From positions 773,493 through 837,492 of the forward strand of contig OZ244884.1 of assembly GCA_965221365.1 (NCBI GenBank): a stretch of DNA of 64,000 bases, in the 5' to 3' direction. Position numbers and translations under genes: made by a program. The notes beneath the pieces were generated by a model, which was not told where the DNA came from, made no database searches, and saw only the letters and a list, made by a program, of their open reading frames with translations. Positions 32,665-59,524 of the stretch are shown one piece after another. The DNA is from Nitrospirales bacterium (GTDB lineage Bacteria > Nitrospirota > Nitrospiria > Nitrospirales > UBA8639). The first letter of the stretch is position 1. The number at the start of each line of letters is the position of its first letter.

Positions 32665-33735
32665 GGCGTCATCGGGGACCCGGCATGACGTTGTGGGCCT
32701 TGAGTCGTCATTCCCGACGCGCGTGCCATCCGTCATACACACGCGCCCAATCGTCATTCCCGCGAAAGCGGGAATCCAGGGCCGTTGCTTTTTCCTTTTT
32801 TTCTGGATGCCGGATCGGAGTCCGGCATGACGGTGAGAGGGATGCCAGGTCGAGGTCCGACATGACGTTGGGGCCTTGAGTCGTCATTCCGCGTCCCCGT
32901 CCGTCGCACCCGCGCACACGCCCCAATCGTCATTCCCGCGAAAAGCCTGCCCTCGACGTTTTTAATCGGGGGCGGGAATCCAGGGCCTTTGCCTTTGCCT
33001 TTTCCTCTGGATGCCGGGTCAGGCCCGGCATGACGGTGGGGGTCTGCCGTCATTATCGCACGCGCTCCGTCATTTCCATGAAGGCCCCCATTCGTCATTC
33101 CCGCGCGCCCCATCCGTCATTCCCGCGAAAACCACCAATCGTCATCCCCGACGTTTGTAATCGGGGATCCAGTGTTTTTTCTTTTTCCTTTCTTCCTGGA
33201 TGCCGGATCGAGTCCGGCATGACGAATGAGGCCTGTGGTTTTTCTGGATGCCAGGTCGAGTCCGGCATGACGTTGGGGCCTTGAGTCGTCATTCCGCGTC
33301 CCCGTCCGTCGCACCCGCGCACACGCGCCCAGTCGTCATTCCCGCGAAGGCGGGAATCCAGGACCGTTGCTTTTTCCTTTTTTTCTGGATGCCGGATCAA
33401 GTCCGGCATGACGGTAAGAGGGATGCCAGGTCGAGTCCGGCGTGACGGAGGGGAGGCCAGTGCGTCATTATCGCGCGCGCTCCGTCATTCCCGCGAAGAC
33501 CACCAATCGTCATCCCCGACGTTTGTAATCGGGGATCCAGGGCAGTTGCTTTTTCCTTTTTCTCTGGATGCCGGATCGGGGTCCGGCATGACGAATGAGG
33601 CCTGTGCCTTTTCCTTTTTCTGGATGCCGGATCGGAGTCCGGCATGACGGAGAGAGGGATGCCGGGTCGGAGCCCGGCATGACGGAGAGGGATGCCGGGT
33701 CAGTCACGGCATGACGACTGGGCGTGACACGGACG
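32665..33735. repeat. Array 2 (about 1.1 kb) of the nested-palindrome repeat family
   Basis: Same modules as array 1. It includes the 108-nt composite element at 32928-33035. Confidence 0.9.
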
Positions 33736-44679: not shown

Positions 44680-47079
44680 ATGGCACGGGCCCGCACGTCA
44701 CCCAGAGGCGATGTCGCCCGAGCCCCTATCACTACGGTGCCGCTGGATCAGACCACGCGCCAGCGGTACCTGAACTACGCCCTGTCCGTGATTACCGCCC
44801 GTGCCCTGCCCGACGTGCGAGACGGGCTGAAGCCGGTGCAGCGCCGCATTCTGTTTTCCATGTTTCACAACCACCGGTTATCCCCCGACCGTCCGCCCAT
44901 CAAGAGCGCCAAGGTCGTGGGGTCGGTGATCGGCGAATGGCATCCCCACGGTGATTCCGCGGTCTATGACGCCATGGCCCGCATGGCCCAATGGTGGTCC
45001 CTTCGCGCGCCCCTCGTGGACGGTCATGGCAACTTCGGCAGCCTGGACGGGGACCCGCCGGCGGCGTACCGGTATACCGAAGCCAGGCTCACCCCGATCG
45101 CCGTCGAACTGCTGACCGAACTGAACAAGGACACGGTTGACTTCCAGCCGAATTACGACGGCAAGGACGAAGAACCGCTGATCCTGCCCGCTCCGTTTCC
45201 GAACCTGCTGGTCAATGGGTCCACCGGCATTGCCGTGGGGATGACCACCAACGTGCCCCCCCATAACCTCGAAGAAGTCATCAACGGAGCCGTGGCCCTG
45301 ATCGACGACCGAACGTGCACGACGTCCGACCTCATGAAGTCGATCAAGGGTCCCGATTTTCCCACCGGCGGGGAAATCCTGAACTCCCGAACCGAGCTTC
45401 GCGAGATCTATGAGACCGGCCAGGGGATGGTGCGCCTGCGCGGGGAGTTCACCGTGGTGCCGGGCTCGCATGGCAAATCCCGGATCGTCGTCACCTCGAT
45501 CCCCTTTGCCGTGGATAAAGCCACGATCCTCGAACGCATCGGCGAACTCATCGCCGGCAAAAAAGTGCCGCAGTTGGTGGACGTTCGCGACGAGTCCACG
45601 ACCGACGTCCAGATCGTGCTGGAACTTCAGAAGGACGCCGATGCCGACGTGGCCATGGCCTATCTGTTCAAACATACTCCACTCCAGGGTAATGTGTCCG
45701 TGAATCTGACGAGTCTGATTCCGGTTCCGGGAACCACGACCGTCCGTCCGCAATGCCTGCCCCTCAAGGAGATCCTCGAACAGTTCATCGATTTTCGCTT
45801 TGAAACGGTCACGCGCCGGTTGTCTCATGACCTGCGCATCCTGGAGCAACGGCTTCACATCCTGTCGGGGTTTCGCGTCATCTTCGATGCCCTGGACGAG
45901 GTGCTGACCATCATCCGTCAGAGTGACGGCAAAGCCGATTCCGCGAAAAAGCTGAAACGTCGATTCCGACTCGACGACGCCCAGACCCACGCGATCCTGG
46001 AGACGCCGATCTACAAGCTCTCCCGGACGGAAATCCAAACCATGTTGGATGAGCTGGCCGACAAGACGAAGCAGGCCCATGACCTCAAGACCCTGCTCGC
46101 CTCGAAGAGCAGGATGTGGAACGTCGTCAAGCAAGAGCTCCGGGCCCTCGCCAAGACGTATGGCGACAAACGGCGGACCAGGGTCGGACGACGCCAAGGG
46201 GACCCCGTCGAATTCGACCCCGAGGCCTACATCGTCAAGGAAGACGCCGTGGTGACGATTTCCACGGACGGATGGATTCGCCGCGTCGGGATGATCAAAG
46301 ACCTGTCGAAAGCCCGGCTCCGGGAAGGGGATACCCTCCTGACGGCCTTGATCGGCAGCACGGTGGATACCATGGTGTGCTTTTCGAATTTCGGTAGCGC
46401 GTACACCATTCGCATTGGCGATCTGGCCCCGGCTCGAAGCGGGTATGGCGATCCCGCGCAAAAGTTGTTCAAATTCAAAGACGGGGAACGCATCATTGCC
46501 GCGCTCAGTGCCGATCCCAGATGCGCGGCCTCGTCAGCTGAACGCCCCGCGACGTCGGCCCTTCCGCTTTTCGACGGAGCACCGTCACCCGCCCTTCGGC
46601 AAGGGCTCGCCGTCTCATCGGCCGGCATGGGCGTGCGCTTTGACGTGGCCCCCTTCAAGGAGCCCTCGACCCGACTCGGTCGAAAATTCATGAAACTCCG
46701 GGACCGGGAAGAAGTCGTGGGCGTCGAAACCCTGGACCCCGCGGCCACGTCCATCCTCGCGGTCGCCTCCCGACGCGGGCGCGCGCTCCTGTGCCAAGCC
46801 GAAGAAATCAGCGTGCTCTCCGGTGCGGGACGAGGGGTCACGGTCATCAAACTCGAGAGCGGGGACCACGTCATGGCCGTGCGCATGTTGTCGCGGAAAC
46901 AGGACCAGTTGATCGTCCTGAAACAGGACGGCGGCAAGCTCCCGATTTCGGCGAGGAAATACCAGCCCGTCAGCCGCGGGGGCAAGGGTCACGTGCTGTT
47001 CAAACGCGGAACCCTGAAAGGAGCCGAACCGTTGCCCGTCGAACTGCCGGTCCTCGATTCGGAACGTCACGACGCGTAA
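44680..47079 (+). CDS. Type IIA DNA topoisomerase subunit A (GyrA/ParC family; ParC-like length)
   Basis: YLNYALSVITARALPDVRDGLKPVQRRILF, HPHGD and the catalytic-Tyr region AAYRYTEARL. 799 aa. I saw no GyrA-box at the usual position in the CTD. Confidence 0.9.
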   Translation: MARARTSPRGDVARAPITTVPLDQTTRQRYLNYALSVITARALPDVRDGLKPVQRRILFSMFHNHRLSPDRPPIKSAKVVGSVIGEWHPHGDSAVYDAMARMAQWWSLRAPLVDGHGNFGSLDGDPPAAYRYTEARLTPIAVELLTELNKDTVDFQPNYDGKDEEPLILPAPFPNLLVNGSTGIAVGMTTNVPPHNLEEVINGAVALIDDRTCTTSDLMKSIKGPDFPTGGEILNSRTELREIYETGQGMVRLRGEFTVVPGSHGKSRIVVTSIPFAVDKATILERIGELIAGKKVPQLVDVRDESTTDVQIVLELQKDADADVAMAYLFKHTPLQGNVSVNLTSLIPVPGTTTVRPQCLPLKEILEQFIDFRFETVTRRLSHDLRILEQRLHILSGFRVIFDALDEVLTIIRQSDGKADSAKKLKRRFRLDDAQTHAILETPIYKLSRTEIQTMLDELADKTKQAHDLKTLLASKSRMWNVVKQELRALAKTYGDKRRTRVGRRQGDPVEFDPEAYIVKEDAVVTISTDGWIRRVGMIKDLSKARLREGDTLLTALIGSTVDTMVCFSNFGSAYTIRIGDLAPARSGYGDPAQKLFKFKDGERIIAALSADPRCAASSAERPATSALPLFDGAPSPALRQGLAVSSAGMGVRFDVAPFKEPSTRLGRKFMKLRDREEVVGVETLDPAATSILAVASRRGRALLCQAEEISVLSGAGRGVTVIKLESGDHVMAVRMLSRKQDQLIVLKQDGGKLPISARKYQPVSRGGKGHVLFKRGTLKGAEPLPVELPVLDSERHDA

Positions 47080-47087
47080 CCCCTGCT

Positions 47088-47850
47088 CCGTCATTCGCGA
47101 GAAGCCCCCCATTCGTCATCCCTGCGGCTCTCGTCGTCATTCCTGCGAAGACCCCCAATCGTCATCCCTGCGGCTCTCGTCGTCATTCCTGCGAAGACCC
47201 CCAATCGTCATCCCCGCCAATGCCCCTTCCGTCATCCCCGACGTTTGTAATCGGGGATCCAGGGCTTTTGCTTCTTCCTTTTTTCTGGATGCCGGATCGG
47301 AGTCCGGCATGACGGAGAGGGATGCCAGGTCGAGTCCGGCATGACGTTGAGGCCCTTGAGTCGTCATTCCGCGTCCCCGTCCGTCGCACCCGCACACGCC
47401 CCCAATCGTCATTCCCGCGAAAAGCCTGCCCTCGACATCTTTAATCGGGGGCGGGAATCCAGGGCCTTTGCCTTTTCCTTCTTCTGGATGCCGGATCGGA
47501 GTCCGGCATGACGACTGAAGGCCTGTGGTCCGTCATTGCTATGAAGACCACCATTCGTCATCCCCGACATTTTTAATCGGGGATCCAGGGCCTTTGCTTT
47601 TTCCTTTTTCTGGATGCCGGATCGGGGTCCGGCATGACGGAGAGGGATGCCAGGTCGAGCCCGGCATGACGGAGAGGGATGCCAGGTCGAGCCCGGCATG
47701 ACGACTGAAGGCCTTGAATCGTCATCCCCCGACGCGCCCAATCCGTCGCACCCGCCTCCAATCGTCATTCCCGCGAAAGCGGGAATCCAGGGTCTTTGCC
47801 TTTTCCTTCTTCTGGATGCCGGATCGGGGTCCGGCATGACGGAGAGGGAT
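47088..47850. repeat. Array 5 of the nested-palindrome repeat family (forward orientation)
   Basis: Modules as in array 1. It includes the 107-nt composite element at 47407-47513. Confidence 0.9.
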
Positions 47851-48011
47851 TCAGAGACAACTCGTGGAAAGGGTACCTCTGAAGCGTTGCAAAATGATCT
47901 ACCCGCCTGCCTGATCCGTTGAATGTTGCGCAATAATGGTGCATAATAGATACAAATAAGAGCTAAAAGGCGCTATATTGATGACAAATTGATTCTATTT
48001 GGAGACAAAAG

Positions 48012-48272
48012 ATGCCAAGAAGAAGCATTTCTATCACAGAAACACATAATGAATGGCTGAAAGCCCAAGTTGCGAGCGGACAATATCGCTCGGAAAGTGA
48101 AGTCATCAGCGATCTTATCCGGGACCGACAAAACCGGGACGCGGGCGTCGAGGCCATTCGCCTTGCGCTGATCGAAGACGAGAAATGCGGCCCCGGCACC
48201 CCCACGACTGAAAACGTCCGAACTGCGGTGCAGGAGCGATTACGGAAAAGCGGCCCGCTGCCCATTCAGTAA
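48012..48272 (+). CDS. ParD-type ribbon-helix-helix antitoxin-like protein (no cognate toxin gene adjacent)
   Basis: ISITETHNEWLKAQVASGQYRSESEVISDLIRDRQNRDAGVEAIRLALIEDE matches the ParD (COG3609-type) pattern from memory. GGAGA lies 6 nt upstream of the ATG. Confidence 0.75.
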   Translation: MPRRSISITETHNEWLKAQVASGQYRSESEVISDLIRDRQNRDAGVEAIRLALIEDEKCGPGTPTTENVRTAVQERLRKSGPLPIQ

Positions 48273-48483
48273 TCCCTTGCCGACTCGGATCGCCGCGGCA
48301 AATACGGAGTCCTGCCATATTCAGGATTGAGACCAAGCAGAGAAGAGGTCTACAGTTCAACTTATCCGGCACCCCGACCTTTCTGAAAATCGGCATAGAC
48401 GTCGACCGGAACGGGTCTTGACTGTCGATGCATCGCATGATGAACCCGACGCGGCAGATGAGGAATGCTAATGGAGAAAGCTG

Positions 48484-49743
48484 ATGATCACGCTGATTGA
48501 AGCACTGAACTACCGTTGCTTGCGGTACGTGCAGAGACCCCTGAAGCCGTTTCACGTCCTGGTCGGGCCGAACGCATCGGGAAAGACCACTTTCTTGGAC
48601 GTCATTGGTCTGCTGAGTGATCTCGTATCCAACGGGTTGGACGCCGCTCTGTCCGATCGCACCTCGAATCCCCAAGAACTCCTCTTTCGGCGCCAAGGTG
48701 ATGGGCTGGAATTGTTGATCGAGGCGCGCATTCCCGAGGAGCTTCGTCAGCAGACGTCGAAACCTGAACTGGACACAATAAGATATGAAGTGGCAATCGG
48801 CTTTGATGAAACGCGGCACCAATTCGAGTTGAAGGCCGAAACCCTGTTATTGAAGAAAGCCAAGGCCTTGAACCTGCCCCAACGCTCATTATTTCCCATG
48901 CCTCCCAGTACACCGGATTCCCTGCTGACCAAGTCCCGTCAACGGGGCAACAAGATCGTGATGAAAAAGATGCCGGGAGGAAACGACAATTTTTATAGTG
49001 AGAAAGATTCTCGTGCTGGCAAGGGTTGGGCACCCTCGATCAGATTGGGACCGGGGAAATCTGTCCTCGGCCATTTCCCTTTCGACGGAAATCAATTTCC
49101 CGTGGCTGCATGGTTTCGAGCATACTTAACCACTGGAGTTCAGCGGTTCGTGCTCAACAGCCATGCGATCAAGCACCCCAGTCCTCCCATGAAGTTTTCG
49201 GGGTTTTTGTCGGACGGCTCAAATCTTCCCTGGGTTGTGCGACGTCTCCGGAAGGACGATCCGGAACGGCACCGTGCTTGGATCGCTCATCTTCGGACGG
49301 CCCTTCCCGATCTGGTGGACGTTGCAACCTCTTTACGGAGAAACGACAGTCACTGCTATATGTTCTACGAATATGAAGGCAGGCTGAAAGTGCCTTCATG
49401 GCTGGTTTCCGATGGCACGCTCAGACTGACGGCCCTCACCTTACCTGCATATCTGAACGATCATCGAGGCATCTATCTGATAGAGGAGCCTGAAAACGGG
49501 ATTCATCCGAAAGCCGTGGCCACCGCGTATGATTCCCTCTCCTCGGTCTATGAGGCCCAGGTGTTGTTGGCGACCCATTCTCCGGTCGTCCTGAGCAAAG
49601 TCGACATGAAAGACGTGCTGTGCTTTGCCAAGAATGACGACGGCTCAACCGACGTCGTTCTTGGCTCTGAACATCCCTTGCTTCAACAATGGCAGGGTAC
49701 CACTGACCTTGGGACCTTGCTCGCCTCCGGGGTCCTGGGATGA
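48484..49743 (+). CDS. SMC/RecF-like ABC ATPase (AAA_15/AAA_21 type) without a fused nuclease domain
   Basis: Walker A GPNASGKTT, signature-like SDGTLRL, Walker B IYLIEEPENGIHP and H-loop LATHSP. GGAG lies 7 nt upstream of the ATG. Confidence 0.85.
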   Translation: MITLIEALNYRCLRYVQRPLKPFHVLVGPNASGKTTFLDVIGLLSDLVSNGLDAALSDRTSNPQELLFRRQGDGLELLIEARIPEELRQQTSKPELDTIRYEVAIGFDETRHQFELKAETLLLKKAKALNLPQRSLFPMPPSTPDSLLTKSRQRGNKIVMKKMPGGNDNFYSEKDSRAGKGWAPSIRLGPGKSVLGHFPFDGNQFPVAAWFRAYLTTGVQRFVLNSHAIKHPSPPMKFSGFLSDGSNLPWVVRRLRKDDPERHRAWIAHLRTALPDLVDVATSLRRNDSHCYMFYEYEGRLKVPSWLVSDGTLRLTALTLPAYLNDHRGIYLIEEPENGIHPKAVATAYDSLSSVYEAQVLLATHSPVVLSKVDMKDVLCFAKNDDGSTDVVLGSEHPLLQQWQGTTDLGTLLASGVLG

Positions 49744-50369
49744 CCAGAAAAAACCTCATTGTTCTCGCAGCCGATAAAAACATCGAATATGCTCTGAAAG
49801 GACTGTTCAGCAGACCCGAAGCACTCGGAATCCGTCGAATTGAGACGGAGATTTTCATTCATCCCCGCCGTGACCCCGGGTGCGTGCAAGACGGCGTTGC
49901 ATTTCTGTCCAACTTCTCGGAGCAATATGACTACGGTCTGCTCATGTTTGATTATGCAGGAAGTGGGAAAGAGCGAAAGCAACAGCCCAAGGAGTTACAG
50001 GAGCTGCTGAACCATGAATTGGACGGTTCGGGATGGCATGGGCGAGCCAAGACAATCGTGTTGTTGCCGGAGATTGAGGCGTGGATCTGGAGTGATTCTC
50101 CCCACGTTCCCGACGTGGCAGGATGGAAGCGTCGGCAGCCGTCACTTCGACAATGGCTGATTGAGCAAGGCTGGCTCGAAAAAGATGCCGTCAAACCCAA
50201 TCAACCAAAAGAGGCGTTCCTGGCAACCTTGCGCGAGGCTCGCACGCAGCGCAGTGCATCCCTGTATCAGCAGATTGCGGAAAAAGTTTCCTTACGTCGA
50301 TGCAAGGATCATTCGTTTCAGGAATTCAGAGACATTCTGAGAGCCTGGTTCCCACAAGAGAGCCAATGA
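49740..50369 (+). CDS. Small partner of the ATPase (209 aa), possibly DUF4276-like
   Basis: ATGA start/stop overlap with the ATPase gene. Motifs LIVLAADKNIEYAL, LLMFDYAGSG and LLPEIEAWIWSD. The family assignment is from memory and unverified. Confidence 0.7.
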   Translation: MTRKNLIVLAADKNIEYALKGLFSRPEALGIRRIETEIFIHPRRDPGCVQDGVAFLSNFSEQYDYGLLMFDYAGSGKERKQQPKELQELLNHELDGSGWHGRAKTIVLLPEIEAWIWSDSPHVPDVAGWKRRQPSLRQWLIEQGWLEKDAVKPNQPKEAFLATLREARTQRSASLYQQIAEKVSLRRCKDHSFQEFRDILRAWFPQESQ

Positions 50370-50438
50370 TGAGTAACAACTGACGTCACACGTTGCGGAT
50401 TGCCGGAAAATACAACCGCAGAACACGGCAAGCGGGGC

Positions 50439-51983
50439 ATGACCCTGGCCAAAGCCTTTCACGCAAGCGACCAGAGTCTGCCAATGGATGCAGACAGATT
50501 CCAGCCCTTGCCGACGCCGAGCTACGATAGCAATGAGCCTCCAGGACAATCCCCGATGAGCCGTCGTGTCGCCACTTCAACCCACTTATGCGAGCGCCCG
50601 ATGTCATGGGTTAAAGCGAACCCTGGGTTGGCTGTTCTGTGGGCTCTGCTTTTCATATTCGTTCTGATTTTCGCGACTTTCCTGTTCGTCATGTTCTCCG
50701 AGGATTGTGAAGCATGGATCGGCCAACGTTTGGGGTTATCCGAAAAAAACGAAATTCTCTCCTTTCTGGGAATCGGCATGGGTGGCATCCTGCTGACCAT
50801 ACAAGCCGTGATCGCGAACAGGCGCGCTAAAGCGATGGAAGAGCAAGCGAAAGCGCAAGTCACGGCCACGGAAAATCAGGCAGAGGCCAACCGACAAACC
50901 GAGAGAGGGCAGCGGCAGGAACGCCTGAAACTCGGCATTGAACACCTGGGACACGGCTCATACTCCGTGCGGCTGGGCGGGGCTTATGAACTGTTCCACC
51001 TTGCTCAGGATACAGAAGAACTGCGCCAGACGGTTCTGGACATTCTCTGTGCTCATCTCCGCCAAACTACGGGCAAAACGGACTATCGGGAGCAATACCC
51101 TAACAAGCCTTCAGAAGAAGTTCAAAGCCTGCTGACCCTGATGTTCGTAGAGGAACATACAGTCTTCGAGGGCCGGCGGATCAATTTGCAAGGAAGCTGG
51201 CTGAATGGGGCCCGGCTCTGGAAAGCGCGCCTGCAGGAAGCCAACCTTACAGATGCACACCTGCAAGGAGCCTACCTTGTAGCTGCACGCCTACATAAGG
51301 TTAATCTCGCAAAGGCACAACTCCAAGGTTCTATTCTTCATGTCGCGTGCCTGAATGGAGCCTTCCTTGCAGATGCACACCTGCATGGGGCTGATCTCGA
51401 AGAAGCAGAAGCGAAAGGCTTTTATTCTAATCTCCAGAGAGCGCACTTGTATGGAGCTAATCTTGCGGGCGCGAAGCTGCAAGGAGCACGTCTTTCTAGC
51501 GCATTCCTTCGAGGAAGTATTCTTGATCATACGCACTTAGAAGGAGCTGCTCTTTCGAAGGCCTCCCTACAAGGAGCGAACCTTGTTGGTGCCTCCCTGC
51601 AAGGAGCTACACTCAGAGGCGCTCATCTGGGAGGAACCACGACTCATGGGTCTTATAATGACATGTCTTTCCCTGAGCGCATAAGAAAGCAGATCGGCAA
51701 GCCCTCTGAGTTTATCAATGCGACCTTCGCGGGCGGATTGAACCAAGAAGACGTAGACTCCAGCGTCCAAGGATTGGACGACCAACAGGCAAACTTGTTA
51801 CGTCGGATACTCAACCCCCATATCAACAGGCCAGCCAGCAATCAACTACCGGAAAACAGCGAGGCCAATACCGGAACCTATTCCTCAGAAGATGCCGAAC
51901 AATGGATCGCCGAATACGAAAAGGCTATGGCGAAGGACAAAGACCGCTCAACCCATGCCAAATCTGAACTGGTTGACCCATGA
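50439..51983 (+). CDS. Membrane-anchored pentapeptide-repeat protein
   Basis: Two TM helices (LAVLWALLFIFVLIFATFLFVMF; ILSFLGIGMGGILLTIQAVIA), a coiled coil rich in A/E/Q/R, then about 30 A(D/N)LxX-type pentapeptides (ANLTDAHLQGAYLVAARLHKVNLAKAQLQGS...). The start is uncertain (TTG 50400, ATG 50439, ATG 50601). GC is visibly lower than the flanks. Confidence 0.8.
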   Translation: MTLAKAFHASDQSLPMDADRFQPLPTPSYDSNEPPGQSPMSRRVATSTHLCERPMSWVKANPGLAVLWALLFIFVLIFATFLFVMFSEDCEAWIGQRLGLSEKNEILSFLGIGMGGILLTIQAVIANRRAKAMEEQAKAQVTATENQAEANRQTERGQRQERLKLGIEHLGHGSYSVRLGGAYELFHLAQDTEELRQTVLDILCAHLRQTTGKTDYREQYPNKPSEEVQSLLTLMFVEEHTVFEGRRINLQGSWLNGARLWKARLQEANLTDAHLQGAYLVAARLHKVNLAKAQLQGSILHVACLNGAFLADAHLHGADLEEAEAKGFYSNLQRAHLYGANLAGAKLQGARLSSAFLRGSILDHTHLEGAALSKASLQGANLVGASLQGATLRGAHLGGTTTHGSYNDMSFPERIRKQIGKPSEFINATFAGGLNQEDVDSSVQGLDDQQANLLRRILNPHINRPASNQLPENSEANTGTYSSEDAEQWIAEYEKAMAKDKDRSTHAKSELVDP

Positions 51984-52034
51984 TGAAGTCCTTTGCGCTG
52001 CCATGCGCGGCCTCGGTTGCTGGAAGAGGGCGCG

Positions 52035-52400
52035 GGGATGACGATTCAAGAGCCTCATCCGTCATGTCGGACTCCGATCCGGCACCAGAAAGACTGAAAG
52101 ACAAGACAAAGAAAAAGCCCTGGATTCCCGCGTTCGCGGGAATGACGTATTTGGACGCCGGACTCCTCCATTCGTCATGCCGGCCCTGACCTGGTGGCCA
52201 GAAAAGCAAAGGCACCAGTCGTCATGCCGGACCCCGATCCGGCATCCAGAAAAAAGGGAAAAGCAAAGACCCTGGATTCCCGCCCCCGATTAAAAACGTC
52301 GAGGGCAGGCTTTTCGCGGGAATGACGGATCGGGGCATTGGCGGGGATGACGAATGGTGGTCTTCGCGGGAATGACGAACTGGGCGTGCGGGAATGACGG
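52035..52400. repeat. Array 6 of the nested-palindrome repeat family (reverse orientation)
   Basis: CCGTCAT-GTCGGACTCCGATCCGGC-ACCAG...CTGGAT-TCCCGCGTTCGCGGGA-ATGACG and related modules. Confidence 0.9.
52208..52327. repeat. 120-bp perfect direct repeat, copy 1 (copy 2 at 53320-53439)
   Basis: Character-by-character comparison shows AAAGGCACCAGTCGTCATGCCGGACCCCGATCCGGCATCCAGAAAAAAGGGAAAAGCAAAGACCCTGGATTCCCGCCCCCGATTAAAAACGTCGAGGGCAGGCTTTTCGCGGGAATGACG is identical at both sites. Confidence 0.9.
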
Positions 52401-52500
52401 GCTGGGGGGACTCAAAAGTCGATCGATTCCATCGATGTGGTGCACTCGATTCGTTCTGCCACTCTATGGTCCACGCCCTACAGCCTGCCTTGTGGAGGCC

Positions 52501-52546
52501 TTGAAACGACTCATTCCTTAATGTAATAATTTCTTACATCCTTACA
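52501..52546 (+). promoter_or_regulatory. Candidate promoter/operator of the AbrB-PIN cassette
   Basis: TTGAAA (52501-52506), 17-nt spacer, TAATAA (52524-52529). The inverted repeat ATGTAA/TTACAT (52521-52526 / 52534-52539) overlaps the -10. A second TTACA lies at 52542-52546. Confidence 0.45.
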
Positions 52547-52558
52547 ATCCTGAATGTC

Positions 52559-52783
52559 ATGCTTGCCAAACTGACATCAAAAAACCAGTTGACTCTCCCG
52601 AAAGCGATATTGGCCGCTTTCGAAGGGGTGGAGTATTTTGAGGTAACCGGAGCGAATGGCTCCATCGTTCTGACGCCCGTGCAGATCAGTCGCGTGGGCA
52701 CCGTGCGCGCCAAGTTGGCCGCATTGGGCCTGTCCGACGCAGACGTGGCCGACGCTGTGGCTTGGGCGCGTCAAGCGGAATGA
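52559..52783 (+). CDS. AbrB/SpoVT-fold antitoxin (VapB/MazE-like)
   Basis: MLAKLTSKNQLTLPKAILAAF is a swapped-hairpin AbrB-type N-terminus. Its stop overlaps the downstream PIN gene start (ATGA). Confidence 0.75.
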   Translation: MLAKLTSKNQLTLPKAILAAFEGVEYFEVTGANGSIVLTPVQISRVGTVRAKLAALGLSDADVADAVAWARQAE

Positions 52784-53220
52784 GCCCACCCCGAGTTGTC
52801 ATCGATACCAACGTGCTGCTTTCGGCACTCCTGTTTCAGGCCGGGACGCTCTCCTGGCTACGCACGGCTTGGCAGGCCCGCCGCATCTGTCCACTGGTAA
52901 GCCGCGAAACGATGAACGAATTGCTTCGAGCGCTGGGCTATCCGAAGTTCGCCCTGACCAACGACGAGCGGGAGGAGCTGCTGGCGGATTATCTGCCCTG
53001 GTGCGAAACCGTCCACGTATCGAAACCGTCAGGGATTCCACCGTGCCGTGATCCATTCGATCTCCCTTTCCTTGAACTTGCGCGCGTGGCTCAGGCCGAT
53101 GCCTTAGTCACCGATGACAAGGATCTGCTTGATATGGCTCAAGGCTTTCCCATTTCGATTCTCACCCCTCGCGCCTTCCGTAAGCGCCTCCCACCCGCCA
53201 AACGGCCGGTGAAGTCGTAG
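52780..53220 (+). CDS. PIN-domain toxin (VapC-like)
   Basis: VVIDTNVLLSALLF... and LVTDDKDLL carry the acidic PIN residues. ATG 52780 overlaps the antitoxin stop. The track start is TTG 52762. Confidence 0.8.
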   Translation: MSPPRVVIDTNVLLSALLFQAGTLSWLRTAWQARRICPLVSRETMNELLRALGYPKFALTNDEREELLADYLPWCETVHVSKPSGIPPCRDPFDLPFLELARVAQADALVTDDKDLLDMAQGFPISILTPRAFRKRLPPAKRPVKS

Positions 53221-53302
53221 AGCGCGCGTTGGTTACATCGCCCGGGGAGGACAAATTCGGATTCAAGTGGCTGGCTGAAACGGTCGCGTTTCAAACATGG
53301 GG

Positions 53303-53485
53303 GCATGCGGGAATGACGGAAAGGCACCAGTCGTCATGCCGGACCCCGATCCGGCATCCAGAAAAAAGGGAAAAGCAAAGACCCTGGATTCCCGCCCCCG
53401 ATTAAAAACGTCGAGGGCAGGCTTTTCGCGGGAATGACGATTGGGACGCGTGAGGTGTGGAGGGGCATGCGCGGGGATGACGAAT
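53303..53485. repeat. Array 7 of the repeat family (contains copy 2 of the 120-bp perfect repeat, 53320-53439)
   Basis: See 52208-52327. The 3' extension ATTGGGACGCGTGAGGTGTGGAGGGGCATGCGCGG is shared with array 8. Confidence 0.9.
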
Positions 53486-53639
53486 GGGGCGTGCTGTGGA
53501 TAGAGAACGAGAACCTGCACAGGCCATCGTCTCGGTTATTGGAAGAGGTGACCGGGGCGGCGGTAAGGACAGGTGTTGGCGTTGACTCAAAAATCGTTTG
53601 ACGTTTGCACCTTACCGCTTTGCATAGTATGTTTTTGCC

Positions 53640-53927
53640 ATGCTCCGGTCATGGCGCAACACGGCGAGCCGCCAAATCTGGGAAGGAAAACGGCTCAACA
53701 GATTCCGTGGTCTGGATTTTGATATGGCTATCGATTTGTTGCTGGCGCTGAATGCCGCTGAAACGATTCGAGACGTGAGTCCACTCAAGAGCGTTGGGCT
53801 GCACAAACTCAAGGGGGAGCGAAAAGGACAATGGGCGATGACCGTAAACGGACCTTGGCGGATTTGCTTCGGGTTTCGTAAAGGTGACGCATTCAATGTC
53901 GAGATTGTCGATTGCCACAGAGGATAA
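53640..53927 (+). CDS. higB: HigB-type (RelE-fold, plasmid maintenance system killer) toxin
   Basis: 95 aa with ..LHKLKGERKGQWAMTVNGPWRICFGFRKGDAFNVEIVDCH, the typical HigB C-terminus. It is followed 4 nt later by higA. Confidence 0.8.
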   Translation: MLRSWRNTASRQIWEGKRLNRFRGLDFDMAIDLLLALNAAETIRDVSPLKSVGLHKLKGERKGQWAMTVNGPWRICFGFRKGDAFNVEIVDCHRG

Positions 53928-53931
53928 AACC

Positions 53932-54216
53932 ATGCACCCTATTGCACACCCTGGCAGATTGTTGAAGCGCGAGATTGAGGCGCGCAACTTGAGCGCCAAT
54001 CGGTTGGCCTTAGCTCTCGGCGTTCCTTCTGGCCGTATCACGGATATCTTGAACGGCCGCCGATCCATCACGGCTGAGACCGCAGTGCGGCTTGGCCGCT
54101 ATTTCGGCAACAGTCCCCGTTTCTGGCTCGAGCTCCAGAGCCAATACGATGTTGCCCTGGTCGAACGTGACCGCGGCACAGAAATAGCCGAACAGGTGCG
54201 GCCTGCCCGTGCCTGA
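53932..54216 (+). CDS. higA: HigA-family HTH (XRE) antitoxin
   Basis: HPGRLLKREIEARNLSANRLALALGVPSGRITDILNGRRSITAETAVRLGRYFGNSPRFWLELQ. ATG 53932 follows AGAGGA. The track start is GTG 53884, inside higB. Confidence 0.85.
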   Translation: MHPIAHPGRLLKREIEARNLSANRLALALGVPSGRITDILNGRRSITAETAVRLGRYFGNSPRFWLELQSQYDVALVERDRGTEIAEQVRPARA

Positions 54217-54282
54217 CGGCGTCGGCGGAATCCATCAAGGTGTTCGACGAACAGGCTCGACAGCTCGTTGCGGAGACGTGTT

Positions 54283-54540
54283 TGGAGGCCGGACTCCTCC
54301 ATTCGTCATGCCGGACCCTGATTCGGCATCCAGGGGAAAAAAGAAAAAGTAAAAGCCCTGGATCCCCGCCCCCGATTAAAAAAGTCGAGGGCAGGCTTTT
54401 CGCGGGAATGACAATTGGGACGCGTGAGGTGTGGAGGGGCATGCGCGGGAATGACAGACTGGGCGCCGGGAATGACTGAAGGGGCGTGCGAAAGGGACAA
54501 GGCCTTGCAGGAATGACGGACGGGGGATCGGGATGCCAGG
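54283..54540. repeat. Array 8 of the repeat family (diverged third copy of the 120-bp element at about 54303-54411)
   Basis: CGTCATGCCGGACCCTGATTCGGCATCCAGGGGAAAAAAGAAAAAGTAAAAGCCCTGGATCCCCGCCCCCGATTAAAAAAGTCGAGGGCAGGCTTTTCGCGGGAATGAC. Confidence 0.85.
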
Positions 54541-54573
54541 GGGGAAACGACGGGGATCATCGAAAGGACTTCC

Positions 54574-56490
54574 ATGACTGCTAAATACGATGCGAGCGAA
54601 ATTCTTGTGCTGGAAGGGATTGACCCGGTTCGCCGAAGACCGGCGATGTACATCGGCGGGACCGACAAGACCGGCCTGCATCATCTCGTGTGGGAAATTC
54701 TGGACAATGCCATCGACGAAGTCATCAATGGGTATGCCACGATGATCACGGTGGAACTCGATAAGACGGGTGACGGCATTCGCATCACCGACAACGGTCG
54801 CGGGATTCCGGTCGATCAGCACAAGCAATACAAAAAGTCGGCACTGGAAATCATCATGACGACGCTCCACGCCGGCGGCAAATTCGAAACCGGCAGCTAC
54901 ATCCATTCCGGCGGATTGCACGGGGTCGGGGCCTCGGTGGTCAATGCCCTCTCCGATTACATGGAAGTCACCGTGAAACGGCACGGGCATGAATGGCAAC
55001 AACGGTATCGGGCCGGCAAGCCCCTGGGGCCGGTCAAACAGGGGAACGCGGCGCGGGGCACGGGCACGTCGGTGTATTTTCGCCCGGACCCGATCATTTT
55101 CGGGAAGCAGACGACCTTCGATTCGACCCTGTTACGGAACACGCTGGAAGCCAAATCCTATCTGCACAAAGGACTCCGGCTCTCGTTCAAGGACGGGCAC
55201 ACGCACGAGTTCGTCCATGAGCAGGGTATCGAAGAATACCTCGTCAAGCTCGTGAAGGATCGTGGCTCGAACCCCACTGCGGACTTCGTGTTTTATCTGG
55301 AGCGTCGCCTGGACAACACCGCTGCGGACGGCTTTGCCATGGAAGTCGCCCTGCAATGGACCGATGAACCCGCGGAATTCATCCGGAGTTACGTGAACGG
55401 CGTGGCCACGTCGAGCGGCGGCACGCATGAATCGGGTCTGCGCAGCGGCATCGTGAAGGCCATGCGTCATTACATGGAGACGCACAACCTCACGCCGAAA
55501 GGGCTCAGTATCCAGGCCGATGATATTCGCGAAGGCATGGCCTGCGTCCTGAGCGTTCTCATTCTGTCTCCGCAATTTCAGGGCCAGACCAAGGAACGGC
55601 TCAATAATCCCGAGGTCCAGGGGCTTGTGGACAACGCCCTGCGACCACCCCTGGAAAATTTTCTTCACGAAAATCAAACCATTGCCGAAACCCTGGTCGG
55701 CCGCATGATCCTGGCGGCGCGCGCGCGGGAAGCGTCCCGTGAGGCGTCAAAGGCCGTCATCCGCCAATCTGCCGTGAGTCATCGCCTGAATCTGCCGGGC
55801 AAGCTGACGGACTGCCAAAGCACGGATCCTGCATGCAGCGAGCTGTTCGTGGTGGAAGGGGATTCCGCAGGAGGGACAGCCAAGCAGGGCCGCGATCTGA
55901 ACACCCAGGCCATCTTCCCCATCCGGGGCAAGGTGCTGAACACGGAGGAACTGACCCTCGGCAAGGTGGTGGAGAACAAGGAACTGTCGGACCTGGTCAA
56001 AGTCCTGGGCTGCGGGATCGGGCGGGATTTCGATCTCAAGAAGTTGCGATACCACAAGATCATCCTGCTCATGGACGCGGACGTCGATGGCTACCACATC
56101 AGCACGTTGCTGCTTACCTTCTTTTTCCGGCACGTCCCGGAATTGATCAGGCAGGGATACGTGTATCTTGCTCAACCGCCCCTCTACCGCATCGACGTGG
56201 GGAAGACCGTCCATTGGGCAGGCTCGGATGAAGAGAAGGAACACGTTCTGGCCAAGGCCCCGGGCAATACCAAGCCGGTCATCAGCCGATTCAAGGGGCT
56301 CGGCGAAATGTTTCCTCAACAGCTCAAGGAGACGACAATGGATCCCGGGACGCGCCGGCTCCTGAAAGTCGAACTGCAGGATGAACTCGATACCGACCGC
56401 ACCTTCCGGGATCTCATGGGCAAACGCACCGAAGCCCGGTATGAGTTTCTGATGGCCAATGCCGCCCTCGCCGATCATCTGGACGTGTAG
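54574..56490 (+). CDS. Type IIA DNA topoisomerase subunit B (GyrB/ParE family; 638 aa)
   Basis: LEGIDPVRRRPAMYIGG, LHHLVWEILDNAIDE (GHKL ATPase), EGDSAGG (Toprim), PIRGKVLN and LMDADVDGYHI. Confidence 0.9.
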   Translation: MTAKYDASEILVLEGIDPVRRRPAMYIGGTDKTGLHHLVWEILDNAIDEVINGYATMITVELDKTGDGIRITDNGRGIPVDQHKQYKKSALEIIMTTLHAGGKFETGSYIHSGGLHGVGASVVNALSDYMEVTVKRHGHEWQQRYRAGKPLGPVKQGNAARGTGTSVYFRPDPIIFGKQTTFDSTLLRNTLEAKSYLHKGLRLSFKDGHTHEFVHEQGIEEYLVKLVKDRGSNPTADFVFYLERRLDNTAADGFAMEVALQWTDEPAEFIRSYVNGVATSSGGTHESGLRSGIVKAMRHYMETHNLTPKGLSIQADDIREGMACVLSVLILSPQFQGQTKERLNNPEVQGLVDNALRPPLENFLHENQTIAETLVGRMILAARAREASREASKAVIRQSAVSHRLNLPGKLTDCQSTDPACSELFVVEGDSAGGTAKQGRDLNTQAIFPIRGKVLNTEELTLGKVVENKELSDLVKVLGCGIGRDFDLKKLRYHKIILLMDADVDGYHISTLLLTFFFRHVPELIRQGYVYLAQPPLYRIDVGKTVHWAGSDEEKEHVLAKAPGNTKPVISRFKGLGEMFPQQLKETTMDPGTRRLLKVELQDELDTDRTFRDLMGKRTEARYEFLMANAALADHLDV

Positions 56491-56507
56491 GCCGCGCCCT
56501 TGCTCCC

Positions 56508-56755
56508 ATCCGTCATGCCGGACTTGATTCGGCGCCAGAAAAAAGAAAAGGCAAAGGACCTGGATTCCCGCTTTCGCGGGAATGACGTATTTGGAGGCCG
56601 GACTCCTCCAGTCGTCATGTCGGACGCGGTCCGGCGCCAGAAAGACTGAAAGACAAGACCAAGAAAAAGCCCTGGATCCCCGATTACAAACGTCGGGGAT
56701 GACGAATGGGGGCGTGCGCGGGAATGACGGATCGGGGCATTGGCGGGGATGACGA
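56508..56755. repeat. Array 9 of the repeat family (reverse orientation)
   Basis: CCGTCATGCCGGACTTGATTCGGCGCCAG...CTGGATTCCCGCTTTCGCGGGAATGACG ... CTGGATCCCCGATTACAAACGTCGGGGATGACG. Confidence 0.9.
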
Positions 56756-56803
56756 GATACACCCAATGCTCTGTCATGGCCCAGGGTCTGCACAGACGGG
56801 GCT

Positions 56804-56832
56804 TTGTCCTGAGACGCGGAGGGCGGTAGAAT
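56804..56832 (+). promoter_or_regulatory. Candidate promoter giving a (near-)leaderless transcript for the SagB-type gene
   Basis: TTGTCC (56804-56809), 17-nt spacer, TAGAAT (56827-56832). The ATG at 56842 is only 9 nt after the -10 element, and there is no SD. Confidence 0.4.
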
Positions 56833-56841
56833 CCACGTCAG

Positions 56842-58557
56842 ATGGAACCCCTCGAATTCGTGAAACATTATCATGCCCAAACCAAGCATGATTTCAACCG
56901 TTATGCCCGCGCCCTCGGGTACATGGACTGGGCCAACCAGCCCGATCCCTTTCGGCGTTATGAAGGAACGATGCTCTATGAATTGCCGCTGATCGAGGCT
57001 GGGGATGATCCGGTGGCGCCTGCGTATGCCTCGTTGTTTTCCTCACCACCGATTCCGCCGCAACCCCTGAATCTGAACGGGCTTTCCCGATTTTTCGAAT
57101 ACGGCCTCTCCATCACCGCGTGGAAGGAGTACGGGGGGAATCGCTGGGCGTTGCGCAGCAATCCGTCCAGCGGCAACCTGCACCCCACCGAAGGCTATCT
57201 GCTGATCAGGGAAACTCCCGGGCTTCCGCTGCAACCCGGGCTCTACCATTATGCTCCCAACGAACATGGGCTGGAGCACCGGTGGCAGGGCTCGAACGAG
57301 TTCCTCGAAGCCCTCCTTCGCCCCTTTCCTGCGCAATCCTTTTTCGTCGGGCTGAGTTCGGTTCATTGGCGGGAGGCCTGGAAATACGGGGAGCGGGCGT
57401 TTCGCTACTGCCAGCACGACGTTGGCCATGCGCTGGGCACGCTTCGGATTGCCGGAGCCGCCCTGGGTTGGCGCGTGTTCCTGCTCGCCGGGCTTGCCGA
57501 TCACACGATGAGCCTTCTTCTCGGCTTGAACCGGTTGCATGAATTTGAACACGCCGAGCCCGAATGTCCCGAACTCATGTGCGTCGTCTGTCCCGCAGAC
57601 GACTCCCGGACGGAAGCCCTGCCGCTCACCGTCGAGCAGGCCGTTCTCGAGCATTGGGAACACGGCGACTGGCGAGGCCAGGCCAATCGACTAAGCCGGG
57701 ACGATCCCGTTTCCTGGGACATTATCGACGCCGTGACCAAGGCGTCCTGGAAACCCGCCACTGAAGCGTTTGGAATAGTCCCTGCGCCGTGCCCGGAACA
57801 GGGCGGGATCGAACCGGCCTCCCCTCCCGATCCCGGACCGAACGTGCTCTCGGCCCACCACGTCATTCATCAACGCCGAAGTGCCGTGGCGTTTGACGGG
57901 CACACGTCGATTGCCGCGGAACGATTCTTCGCGATGCTGGCGCGCGTCATGCCTCACGCCACCCGACCCGTTGCCCAACGACCGATGCCGTGGGATTCGC
58001 TCCCGTGGGAGCCCACCATTCACCTGGCTCTCTTCGTTCATCGGGTCGACGGCCTCCTGCCCGGGCTCTACATGCTCCTGCGACGTTCGGACCCTGCGCT
58101 CAAGGCCACCTTGCAACAATCCATGCATCAACAATTCGTCTGGACCGTTCCCGCACAATGTCCGGAAACGCTTCCCCTGTACCTGTTGGAGGATGGGAAC
58201 GCGCAACGCCTGGCCATGCAGTTGAGTTGCCACCAGGAAATCGCAGGAGCCGGGGCGTTTTCCCTGGGGATGATTGCGGAATTCGAGGCGTCGTTGGAGA
58301 ACCATGGCCCGTGGTTCTACAAGCGCCTGTTCTGGGAAACCGGCCTCATCGGGCAGGTGCTGTACCTGGAGGCGGAAGCGGCCGGTGTTCGTGCAACGGG
58401 CATCGGGTGTTTTTTCGATGATCCCGTGCATCGCGTCCTCGGCTGGTATCCCGAGACGCGCTTTCAGTCCCTGTATCACTTCACCGTGGGTGGAGCCGTG
58501 GAGGATCATCGCCTCACCACCCTGCCTCCCTATGGCAAACGGAGAGGGACGCCGTGA
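56842..58557 (+). CDS. SagB-type dehydrogenase / double nitroreductase-fold protein
   Basis: N-terminus FVKHYHAQTKHDFNRYA..DWANQPDPFRRYEG is typical of the SagB/ThcOx family (memory). The C-terminus GIGCFFDD..H is nitroreductase-like. 571 aa. Confidence 0.75.
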   Translation: MEPLEFVKHYHAQTKHDFNRYARALGYMDWANQPDPFRRYEGTMLYELPLIEAGDDPVAPAYASLFSSPPIPPQPLNLNGLSRFFEYGLSITAWKEYGGNRWALRSNPSSGNLHPTEGYLLIRETPGLPLQPGLYHYAPNEHGLEHRWQGSNEFLEALLRPFPAQSFFVGLSSVHWREAWKYGERAFRYCQHDVGHALGTLRIAGAALGWRVFLLAGLADHTMSLLLGLNRLHEFEHAEPECPELMCVVCPADDSRTEALPLTVEQAVLEHWEHGDWRGQANRLSRDDPVSWDIIDAVTKASWKPATEAFGIVPAPCPEQGGIEPASPPDPGPNVLSAHHVIHQRRSAVAFDGHTSIAAERFFAMLARVMPHATRPVAQRPMPWDSLPWEPTIHLALFVHRVDGLLPGLYMLLRRSDPALKATLQQSMHQQFVWTVPAQCPETLPLYLLEDGNAQRLAMQLSCHQEIAGAGAFSLGMIAEFEASLENHGPWFYKRLFWETGLIGQVLYLEAEAAGVRATGIGCFFDDPVHRVLGWYPETRFQSLYHFTVGGAVEDHRLTTLPPYGKRRGTP

Positions 58558-58584
58558 ACAGGAAGGCATCTGGCGGGCCTCAAC

Positions 58585-58740
58585 CTTTGCTTTTTCTTTT
58601 TTCTGGATGCCGGATCAAGTCCGGCATGACGGTGGGGGATACCGGATCGGAGTCCGGCATGACGACTGCTCGCCTGTGGTCTTCTGGATGCCAGGTCGGA
58701 GTCCGGCATGACGGATTGTAGGTATCCGGCAGGACGGCAG
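58585..58740. repeat. Array 10 of the repeat family (forward orientation)
   Basis: CTTTGCTTTTTCTTTTTTCTGGATGCCGGATCAAGTCCGGCATGACGG ... CTGGATGCCAGGTCGGAGTCCGGCATGACGG. Confidence 0.85.
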
Positions 58741-58896
58741 GGCGGAGAGGGAGGCAGGACGCATGGAAGGTGGGAGCCCGTTCTCTTGCAGTCTGCCCAT
58801 GGAATAGGATAGGGTTATGACTATTCAATCCGGCTCGACTCGCGAGATCGTTTCCTTCAGCGACACCGAGCATCATCCACGATCAAGGAGGACGTC

Positions 58897-58986
58897 ATGA
58901 ATCCACTCGACTCGATCCCCGGCACGATAGCCGCAGGATTCGTACTGACCGTCGTTCTATATTTTTTCGTGAAACTGCTTGTCTAG
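58897..58986 (+). CDS. Candidate 29-aa hydrophobic micropeptide (below the track size cut-off)
   Basis: AAGGAGG lies 6 nt upstream of the ATG. Translation is MNPLDSIPGTIAAGFVLTVVLYFFVKLLV, followed by a stop. It sits 55 nt upstream of the next membrane-protein gene. Confidence 0.4.
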   Translation: MNPLDSIPGTIAAGFVLTVVLYFFVKLLV

Positions 58987-59041
58987 CACTTCTTGAACGT
59001 TTCCTGTACTTCCCTGCAATCAACCGAAAGAGGATATACAA

Positions 59042-59524
59042 ATGGAAACCTTATTAGCTTGGGGACATTTTCTGGCGGGTATCACCTGGATCGGTATTTT
59101 GTATTATTTCAATTTCATTCAAGTGCCCTTTTTGGGAAAGGTCACTCCTGAAACCAAGGCTGAAGCCTTCAAACATTTAGTCCCGAACGCCCTCTGGTGG
59201 TTCCGCTGGGGCGCGCTCGCCACGTGGCTGTTCGGGGCCCTGCTCCTGATGAACCAAGCGCGATTCGCCTCGGCATTCGCCCTGCAGGGGCAAGATGCCA
59301 TCATCGGAATGGGGGCTTGGCTCGGAACCATTATGCTTTTGAACGTCTGGGGCATTATCTGGCCCAATCAGAAAAAGGTCCTGGGGCTCAAGGAGGCCAC
59401 CGCGGACGAGAAGAAACAATCCGCCCGCATGGCCCTGTTGGCTTCGCGGACCAATACGATGCTTTCGATTCCCATGTTGTTCTTCATGGCCTCGTCCGGG
59501 CATCCATCCGCCGGGCTGTTTTAA
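59042..59524 (+). CDS. Integral membrane protein (160 aa), resembles the membrane domain of PuuD-type urate hydroxylases
   Basis: HFLAGITWIGILYYFNFIQVPF... and 4 predicted TM helices. AGAGGA lies upstream of the ATG. The functional assignment is from memory and weak. Confidence 0.7.
   Translation: METLLAWGHFLAGITWIGILYYFNFIQVPFLGKVTPETKAEAFKHLVPNALWWFRWGALATWLFGALLLMNQARFASAFALQGQDAIIGMGAWLGTIMLLNVWGIIWPNQKKVLGLKEATADEKKQSARMALLASRTNTMLSIPMLFFMASSGHPSAGLF

Follow-up and report, generated by a model that had tools for sequence, protein, structure and literature searches.

Neisseria genomes carry the Neisseria Transformation Sequence (NTS), a 28-nt oriented hairpin that contains dRS3, and SsnA, a GIY-YIG nuclease of 94 amino acids, binds the NTS hairpin when the DNA is single-stranded and cleaves a few nucleotides upstream of it; SsnA activity was lost when the stem was changed (Chenal et al. 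2025, Nat Commun 16:2388, PMC11893778). The dRS3 sequences are the Neisseria members of the CGTC-1 group within the CGTC-tagged REP super-family, whose members form inverted dimers, occur in large clusters in Neisseria and Wolbachia and have no dedicated transposase (Di Nocera et al. 2013, BMC Genomics 14:522, PMC3733652). Here we analyze a stretch of 64,000 nucleotides from a Nitrospirales bacterium (assembly GCA_965221365.1, contig OZ244884.1, positions 773,493 to 837,492; hereafter the window), in which two perfect 120-nt direct repeats flank a predicted AbrB-PIN toxin-antitoxin cassette in the gap between parC and parE. Judged by its sequence, the 120-nt string is one module of the known genome-wide family of Ssn-type hairpin repeats (NTS/dRS3, CGTC-tagged). 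The modules make up arrays at the junctions of the parC-parE island, and with a probability of roughly 0.6 the perfect pair represents the youngest exchange of a module between neighbouring arrays.

Module E and its genome-wide repeat family

The 120-nt string, denoted module E, is an inverted doublet with its tags facing outward, the two ends reading CGTCAT and ATGACG. It is composed of a 12-nt leader, a 30-nt hairpin unit, a 22-nt A-rich spacer and, on the opposite strand, a unit with NTS arms (CGTCATTCCCGCG and GCGGGAATCCAG) that are separated by a 31-nt insert. Both hairpins carry the CGTCAT tag, a palindrome beginning with AT, a C after the palindrome and the CCAG tail. The copies of module E, their units and the exact NTS sequences of the island are the following:

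52208-52327, plus strand: module E, copy 1; leader, hairpin, spacer and reversed long-loop NTS; 120 of 120 bases identical to copy 2
52220-52249, plus strand: left hairpin unit of E, an NTS variant with CGTCAT tag, GCCGGA/TCCGGC stem and ATCCAG tail; about 213 units genome-wide
52272-52327, minus strand: right unit of E, with canonical NTS arms and the 31-nt loop insert, which holds a small hairpin of its own; 18 long-loop units genome-wide
53320-53439, plus strand: module E, copy 2; its right flank resembles the flank of copy 3 instead
53440-53483, plus strand: 3' extension, common to copies 2 and 3 and absent from copy 1; its best genome-wide match is local
54299-54413, plus strand: module E, copy 3, diverged (88.6% identical to copy 1), located 3' of higA
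47407-47517, minus strand: inverted copy of module E in array A47, 92.9% identical (inverted-repeat pairs I1-I3)
52120-52147 (minus strand), 47763-47790 (plus strand) and 56560-56587 (minus strand): exact 28-nt NTS consensus, three in the island arrays

A blastn search with the 120-mer in the 2.19-Mb genome detected 351 pieces, distributed over both strands, of which 38 approach full length. Short tag motifs were found 866 times, compared with 35 in a shuffled sequence, and 114 arrays of at least three motifs each cover about 32 kb of the genome. The repeats are dispersed on both strands, also between housekeeping genes. For the 28-nt Neisseria NTS consensus we counted 92 exact matches, and none in five dinucleotide shuffles; dRS3 occurs 116 times (0-2 in dinucleotide shuffles) and the pattern of Ssn-related motifs (SRM) 137 times (about 22 in shuffles). 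For comparison we used 37 congeners, which together with this genome (G000) represent 38 species; G-numbers denote genomes. Each congener carries only 0 to 8 exact NTS sequences, demonstrating that the family has expanded in this lineage. Both borders of the 120-nt identity are natural borders of the module and recur at many loci.

The fold of module E gave a z-score of only -1.65, and strong intrinsic structure was rejected. Rfam returned 0 matches at E<=1 over positions 46900-57000. A role as terminator was also rejected: the module has no terminator match on the gene strand and one weak match on the minus strand (52228-52211) at its left edge, and overall counts are near chance. With the leading strand assigned from an origin placed at the GC-skew minimum near 1.20 Mb, adjoining gyrB, 131 of 213 GCCGG-stem hairpins fall on this strand, a weak bias, and the canonical NTS shows no consistent bias. 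Far larger arrays of the same family are present elsewhere in the window, at 23535-25233 and 32680-33683 (35 and 20 tag motifs, respectively), and contain perfect tandem duplications, for example one of 195 nt with a period of 158.

The genome carries a single small GIY-YIG open reading frame (ORF). It is located outside the window (G000:C1:1038720-1039007; L099:1444-1734, minus strand) and encodes a single-domain protein of 96 amino acids with a Pfam score of 60.7 bits. Hairpins with the GCCGGA stem, the left type of module E, lie about 100 nt upstream of this gene and directly downstream of it, both in the orientation of the gene. More than 3,000 homologues of about 96 amino acids were found. 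Size, single domain, genomic context and number of homologues are consistent with a putative Ssn nuclease of CDD family cd10448, homologous to N. meningitidis SsnA. An Ssn-like gene is present in 25 of the 37 congeners at an identity of at most 66%, and the closest homologues of the protein (about 68-71%) are metagenomic and marine gammaproteobacterial proteins; there are hints that the gene may have been acquired horizontally before the repeats expanded. Distant small GIY-YIG ORFs were also seen inside the islands of G008, G053 and G003.

The likeness to the Neisseria NTS/dRS3-SsnA system thus extends from the exact NTS and the oriented hairpins, with CGTC tag and ATCCAG tail, to the intergenic arrays around variable genes, the one small GIY-YIG gene between hairpins and the expansion by an order of magnitude in one lineage relative to its relatives. 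Unlike the Neisseria NTS, the repeats reside in an uncultured Nitrospirales host, their commonest hairpin stem is GCCGGA rather than TCCCGC, and the second hairpin of the module has a 31-nt insert in its loop. With the CGTC-tagged REPs and the Neisseria intergenic mosaic elements (NIMEs) they share the CGTC tag, the AT-initial stem, frequent inverted dimers (spacers of 20-100 bp), large mosaic clusters and the lack of a dedicated transposase, whereas the modules described here are longer, with leader and loop segments specific to the lineage, and Nitrospirota were not listed in the published survey (PMC3733652). Inverted doublets of short palindromes dispersed between genes are also typical of REP/REPIN-RAYT systems, in which, unlike here, the tag is GTAG and not CGTC. 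RAYT, the Y1 transposase of these systems (PF01797), gave 0 matches in the genome, which is 99.7% complete, and with no Y1 transposase found, a REP-RAYT interpretation was rejected.

The perfect pair and the patchwork of the island arrays

The sequence-only reading had reported two identical 120-nt strings 1,112 bp apart, and alignment confirmed identity at 120 of 120 bases with a start-to-start distance of 1,112 bp. The identity breaks off abruptly at both ends, with 0 bases of extension. The 22 full-length E copies of the subtype to which the pair belongs have a median pairwise identity of 0.85. After the perfect pair, the highest value is 0.98, and the remaining pairs do not exceed 0.944; judged by these values, the identity of the pair is not chance.

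Module E copies lie in arrays that alternate with the genes of the island. The arrays, to which no strand is assigned, are listed here:

47080-47900: array A47, at the junction of parC and the ribbon-helix-helix (RHH) gene; 18 motif matches; flanked by the conserved blocks ending at 47063 and beginning at 47908
52030-52420: array A52, from the pentapeptide gene to AbrB-PIN; holds E copy 1; collinear with A56
53290-53500: array A53, from the PIN gene to HigBA; holds E copy 2
54280-54560: array A54, from higA to parE; holds E copy 3
56500-56780: array A56, downstream of parE; a paralogue of A52, with 56717-56755 and 52315-52353 identical at 39 of 39 bases

Decomposition of these arrays into head, E and tail showed the combinations b-E1-d in A52, x-E1-ext in A53, b-E3-ext in A54 and b-E2-d in A56. 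A52 and A56 therefore have their head modules and tail d (39/39) in common while their central modules differ, and A53 has its central module in common with A52 and its tail in common with A54. The latter tail is the extension that follows copies 2 and 3 (53440-53481 against 54414-54455), identical at 41 of 42 bases. A diverged third copy behind HigBA that shares a 3' extension with copy 2, and an inverted copy beyond the ATPase cassette, had both been pointed out by the sequence-only reading, and both are present, at the positions and identities listed above.

The sharing of patches has a local character. When 50-nt sliding windows in A52-A56 were compared with the whole genome, the best match lay within the island for 47 of 100; the island makes up about 4% of all array sequence. 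Similarity between E copies is higher within 20 kb than over longer distances (0.885 versus 0.825; p=0.006 by permutation, perfect pair included). The longest exact repeats in other arrays mostly represent local tandem duplications (period 140-430 nt), indicating that the arrays turn over rapidly and locally. The shuffled near-perfect patches point to conversion or duplication of modules and not to a special property of the cassette that the perfect pair encloses.

Two further repeats of the genome were noted in passing. At L112 (G000:C1:1300800-1306200), a perfect direct repeat of 280 nt, with copies 3,090 bp apart, consists of array sequence and an apparent C-terminal remnant of an integrase or transposase (no Pfam match), and encloses several ORFs that have no Pfam matches. 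The longest exact repeats of the genome are found outside the window at G000:C1:757832-761000, in a long run of near-perfect 279-nt tandem repeats that is apparently coding.

The parC-parE island and the age of the AbrB-PIN cassette

The genes of the island and the sites that matter for its history are as follows:

44680-47079, plus strand: parC (topoisomerase IV subunit A), left border of the island
52501-52530, plus strand: promoter-like site of the AbrB-PIN operon (TTGAAA, 18-nt spacer, AATAAT, TG motif; 10 of 12 matches); homology with congeners begins here
52559-52783, plus strand: AbrB/SpoVT-like antitoxin gene (ORF of 74 amino acids); weak MazE/PemI match (19 bits, below cut-off); 74-81% amino acid identity in congeners
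52780-53220, plus strand: PIN-domain toxin gene (146 amino acids); PIN_3, E=6.8e-21; TIGR00305; its start overlaps the AbrB stop (ATGA)
53239-53299, plus strand: 60-nt remnant of the 5' end of a KAP-family NTPase gene, immediately behind the PIN stop; ends where A53 begins
53640-54216, plus strand: HigB-HigA cassette; Pfam HigB-like toxin and HTH_3; about 88% nucleotide identity in congeners
54574-56490, plus strand: parE (topoisomerase IV subunit B), right border of the island

The AbrB-PIN pair is a putative type II toxin-antitoxin system, VapBC-like, in which the antitoxin fold is weakly indicated. As the sequence-only reading had stated, the promoter-like site and both genes all lie between copies 1 and 2 of module E.

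Across the 38 species, the gap between parC and parE varies from 36 bp (G011) to about 16 kb (G003), and in G007 a distance of 1 Mb separates the two genes. Inside the gap, G019, G008, G004, G017 and G012 carry the AbrB-PIN block (52519-53222) with a nucleotide identity of about 80%; G001 has it too at this identity, but at another place together with the pentapeptide gene, parC and parE being adjacent there. Partial copies are present in G002, G003, G009 and G015. The usual order in the congeners is parC, AbrB-PIN, RHH, HigBA, other genes and parE, with spacers of 45-160 bp. Neither tag-motif arrays between the cassettes of the cassette-bearing congeners nor direct repeats flanking AbrB-PIN in G008 or G001 were detected.

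In the genome studied here the order is parC, RHH, a pair of ATPase genes, the pentapeptide gene, AbrB-PIN, HigBA and parE. The conserved blocks comprise parC up to 47063, RHH (47908-48265), the pentapeptide gene (50606-52029), AbrB-PIN (52501-53222), HigBA (53594-54280) and parE from 54552, and the arrays occupy the parC-RHH junction and, starting with the pentapeptide gene, all cassette junctions; no arrays are present at the remaining ones. Because the cassette is present at about 80% identity in congeners that lack the arrays, and because the arrays here lie between conserved blocks, AbrB-PIN is an old resident of the parC-parE gap and the arrays are a later invasion. The later invasion is consistent with the contrast between 92 exact NTS sequences in this genome and the few in any congener.

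For the perfect pair, the sequence-only reading had offered a very recent duplication, insertion or gene conversion. That the event was very recent stands, typical copies being 85% alike. A recent insertion of the cassette from outside, on the other hand, is not supported, since at least six congeners carry the cassette, about 80% identical and, in those inspected, without flanking repeats. The sequence-only reading is thus partly supported, and it missed the genome-wide repeat family, the age of the cassette and the shuffled patches among neighbouring arrays.

The borders of the arrays carry further traces of change. The KAP remnant behind the PIN gene aligns to the start of an ORF of 718 amino acids in G019 (L011:10906-13062), which matches KAP_NTPase with E=7e-50, and to G003; the gene is intact in both genomes. 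The remnant is cut at the point where A53 starts, so rearrangement and erosion have affected the island at the array borders. In G002 (L017:9120-9790), a different AbrB/SpoVT-PIN pair in the opposite orientation lies between parC and the AbrB remnant and is preceded by NTS-like hairpins with a TCCCGA stem; congeners therefore bear hairpin variants of their own at the island site.

Origin and consequences of the perfect pair

The perfect pair is best read as a recent gene conversion or module duplication between neighbouring arrays, which is the simplest reading. The repeat family expanded in this Nitrospirales lineage, with arrays settling at the cassette junctions of the island; neighbouring arrays would then have swapped modules by homologous recombination, be it gene conversion, unequal exchange or local duplication and deletion, and the pair would have arisen when one whole module was duplicated or passed non-reciprocally from one array to its neighbour. 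We infer that this exchange was a RecA-dependent conversion or duplication; RecA, ComEC and DprA are all encoded in the genome. By analogy with Neisseria, the Ssn-like nuclease would cut hairpins in incoming single strands, and cuts on both sides of the cassette would uncouple it from parC/parE homology during transformation.

Once formed, the direct pair could in turn delete the 1,112-bp AbrB-PIN unit, an event that loss of the antitoxin would penalise. The sequence-only reading had likewise seen in the perfect repeats a substrate for deletion of the cassette, which is plausible for RecA with 120 bp of direct homology; no deletion variant was found among the few assemblies available. Exact-protein look-ups for deletion or empty-site variants (with the PIN protein, HigA and the pentapeptide protein) recovered only the same architecture in these assemblies, and two metagenome scans for variant alleles with junction 44-46-mers gave nothing.

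Several observations weigh against module exchange of the kind proposed. There is no direct evidence that separates conversion from its rivals, and we saw no sister strain in which the module at 53320 had diverged. Left of the identity there is no homology, so that a simple conversion tract must resolve inside the module, and the contrast between core and extension in the comparison of copies 2 and 3 (13/114 against 1/42 differences) is only suggestive. As to the Ssn part, the two hairpins of module E miss the published degenerate SRM pattern, one having another stem and the other the 31-nt loop, and cutting of the GCCGGA-stem hairpin is only putative because a stem change abolished SsnA activity. 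Finally, three other loci show a layout of repeat, gene and repeat in which the repeat includes unique DNA, a better fit to insertion or duplication than to conversion. At L111 (G000:C1:1535800-1539400), a Fic/DOC gene (370 amino acids) is bracketed by direct repeats, perfect over 259 nt and 82 nt, that include the 3' end of lspA and array sequence, the two copies differing by one 153-nt array unit. At L110 (G000:C1:1448300-1451000), a DUF4926 gene (79 amino acids) lies between direct repeats of about 350 nt with 92-93% identity, which contain unique DNA and a full module. In G019 (L011:7436-9014) the repeat is a different one: AbrB-PIN itself is placed between two copies of a ParD-like RHH gene (300 nt, 94% identical, 1,279 bp apart).

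These layouts bear on the main rival, relocation of the cassette, in which AbrB-PIN with short flanks and one E would have been excised as a 1,112-bp circle through flanking repeats and re-integrated by a single crossover in another E between the pentapeptide gene and HigBA. Besides the recurrence of the layout around the Fic gene, the DUF4926 gene and AbrB-PIN in G019, relocation agrees with the altered gene order, AbrB-PIN not being located directly after parC as it is in the congeners, and with about 100 nt upstream of RHH that are homologous to the spacer after AbrB or PIN in G002 and G019, from where the cassette seems to have departed. A crossover between two E copies, however, yields two reciprocal chimeras that are identical only if the parents were, and typical copies differ by 7-15%; moreover, the E copy that remains in A47 is inverted, and neither a circle junction nor an empty site was seen in look-ups of the few assemblies. 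We consider relocation unlikely, although it comes closest to the preferred reading. Less likely still are two independent recent insertions, on either side of the cassette, of a mobile element of 108-120 nt resembling a miniature inverted-repeat transposable element and possibly mobilised in trans. Module E does have terminal inverted repeats (CGTCAT and ATGACG), the identity spans exactly one complete module, and a third young copy, oppositely oriented and 74 kb distant, has 2 differences. Yet the genome holds no other identical copy, the members of the pair have in common a 12-nt leader that the 98% copy lacks, and two landings in the same orientation 1.1 kb apart would be a coincidence. 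No target-site duplication was found at either copy and no RAYT in the genome, and for CGTC-tagged REPs the absence of a dedicated transposase has been reported (PMC3733652). Two related candidates were rejected. A long target-site duplication from staggered Ssn nicks does not agree with borders that lie 12 nt and 0 nt outside the CGTCAT tags, in place of the symmetric few nucleotides upstream reported for SsnA, and that are natural module borders. A simple tandem duplication does not agree with a repeated part of only 120 nt in a period of 1,112 nt.

An assembly or polishing artefact that homogenised two similar repeats would explain why this pair alone is perfectly identical, and misassembly had been named by the sequence-only reading as an outcome that would refute it. 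A separately deposited contig in ENA (ERZ26695579, ctg115524_5.96x_l, 80,277 bp), which does not necessarily derive from independent reads, is 100% identical over 12,441 bp (window 46780-59220), both copies included. Because this 80-kb contig is identical across the whole island, misassembly is unlikely; the 1.1-kb spacing is easily bridged by long reads and the assembly contains several other perfect local repeats, which leaves the artefact very improbable. The least probable reading is that of an integron-like cassette array with the 120-nt repeats as attC-type sites. The island resembles chromosomal integrons (attC, for example the VCRs of Vibrio) in that its small same-strand cassettes, about 1 kb each, alternate with structured repeats of about 120 nt; such integrons typically carry toxin-antitoxin cassettes. 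Unlike in integrons, the repeats occur genome-wide on both strands and between housekeeping genes, and the congeners have these cassettes but not the repeats. Only two tyrosine recombinase genes (PF00589) were found in the genome, at 1.148 and 1.807 Mb, far from the island, and no attC core (GTTRRRY or RYYYAAC) was found at the module borders. With no integron integrase and no attC core sites, the integron reading is effectively refuted.

A broader idea, to which we give little credence, is that inverted hairpin doublets, possibly with Ssn-like nicking, would act as portable homology sites and permit integrase-free shuffling of small toxin-antitoxin and defence cassettes, which would leave as circles and re-enter at any other module copy. 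If this were true, its traces would be the layouts seen at AbrB-PIN, Fic and DUF4926.

Read as module exchange between arrays, the perfect repeat amounts to neither a new system nor a new kind of mobile cassette; it would reflect fresh local recombination in the known Ssn/NTS hairpin repeats. What is particular to this locus is a very recent local exchange that flanks a toxin-antitoxin pair. The analysis adds a Nitrospirales host to the family, in which a lineage-specific tenfold expansion mirrors that in pathogenic Neisseria. The parC-parE gap is a clear insertion hot spot and could serve as a comparative system, and the locus provides a compact natural example of how arrays colonise island junctions, how they exchange modules and how they may affect the gain and loss of toxin-antitoxin and defence cassettes.

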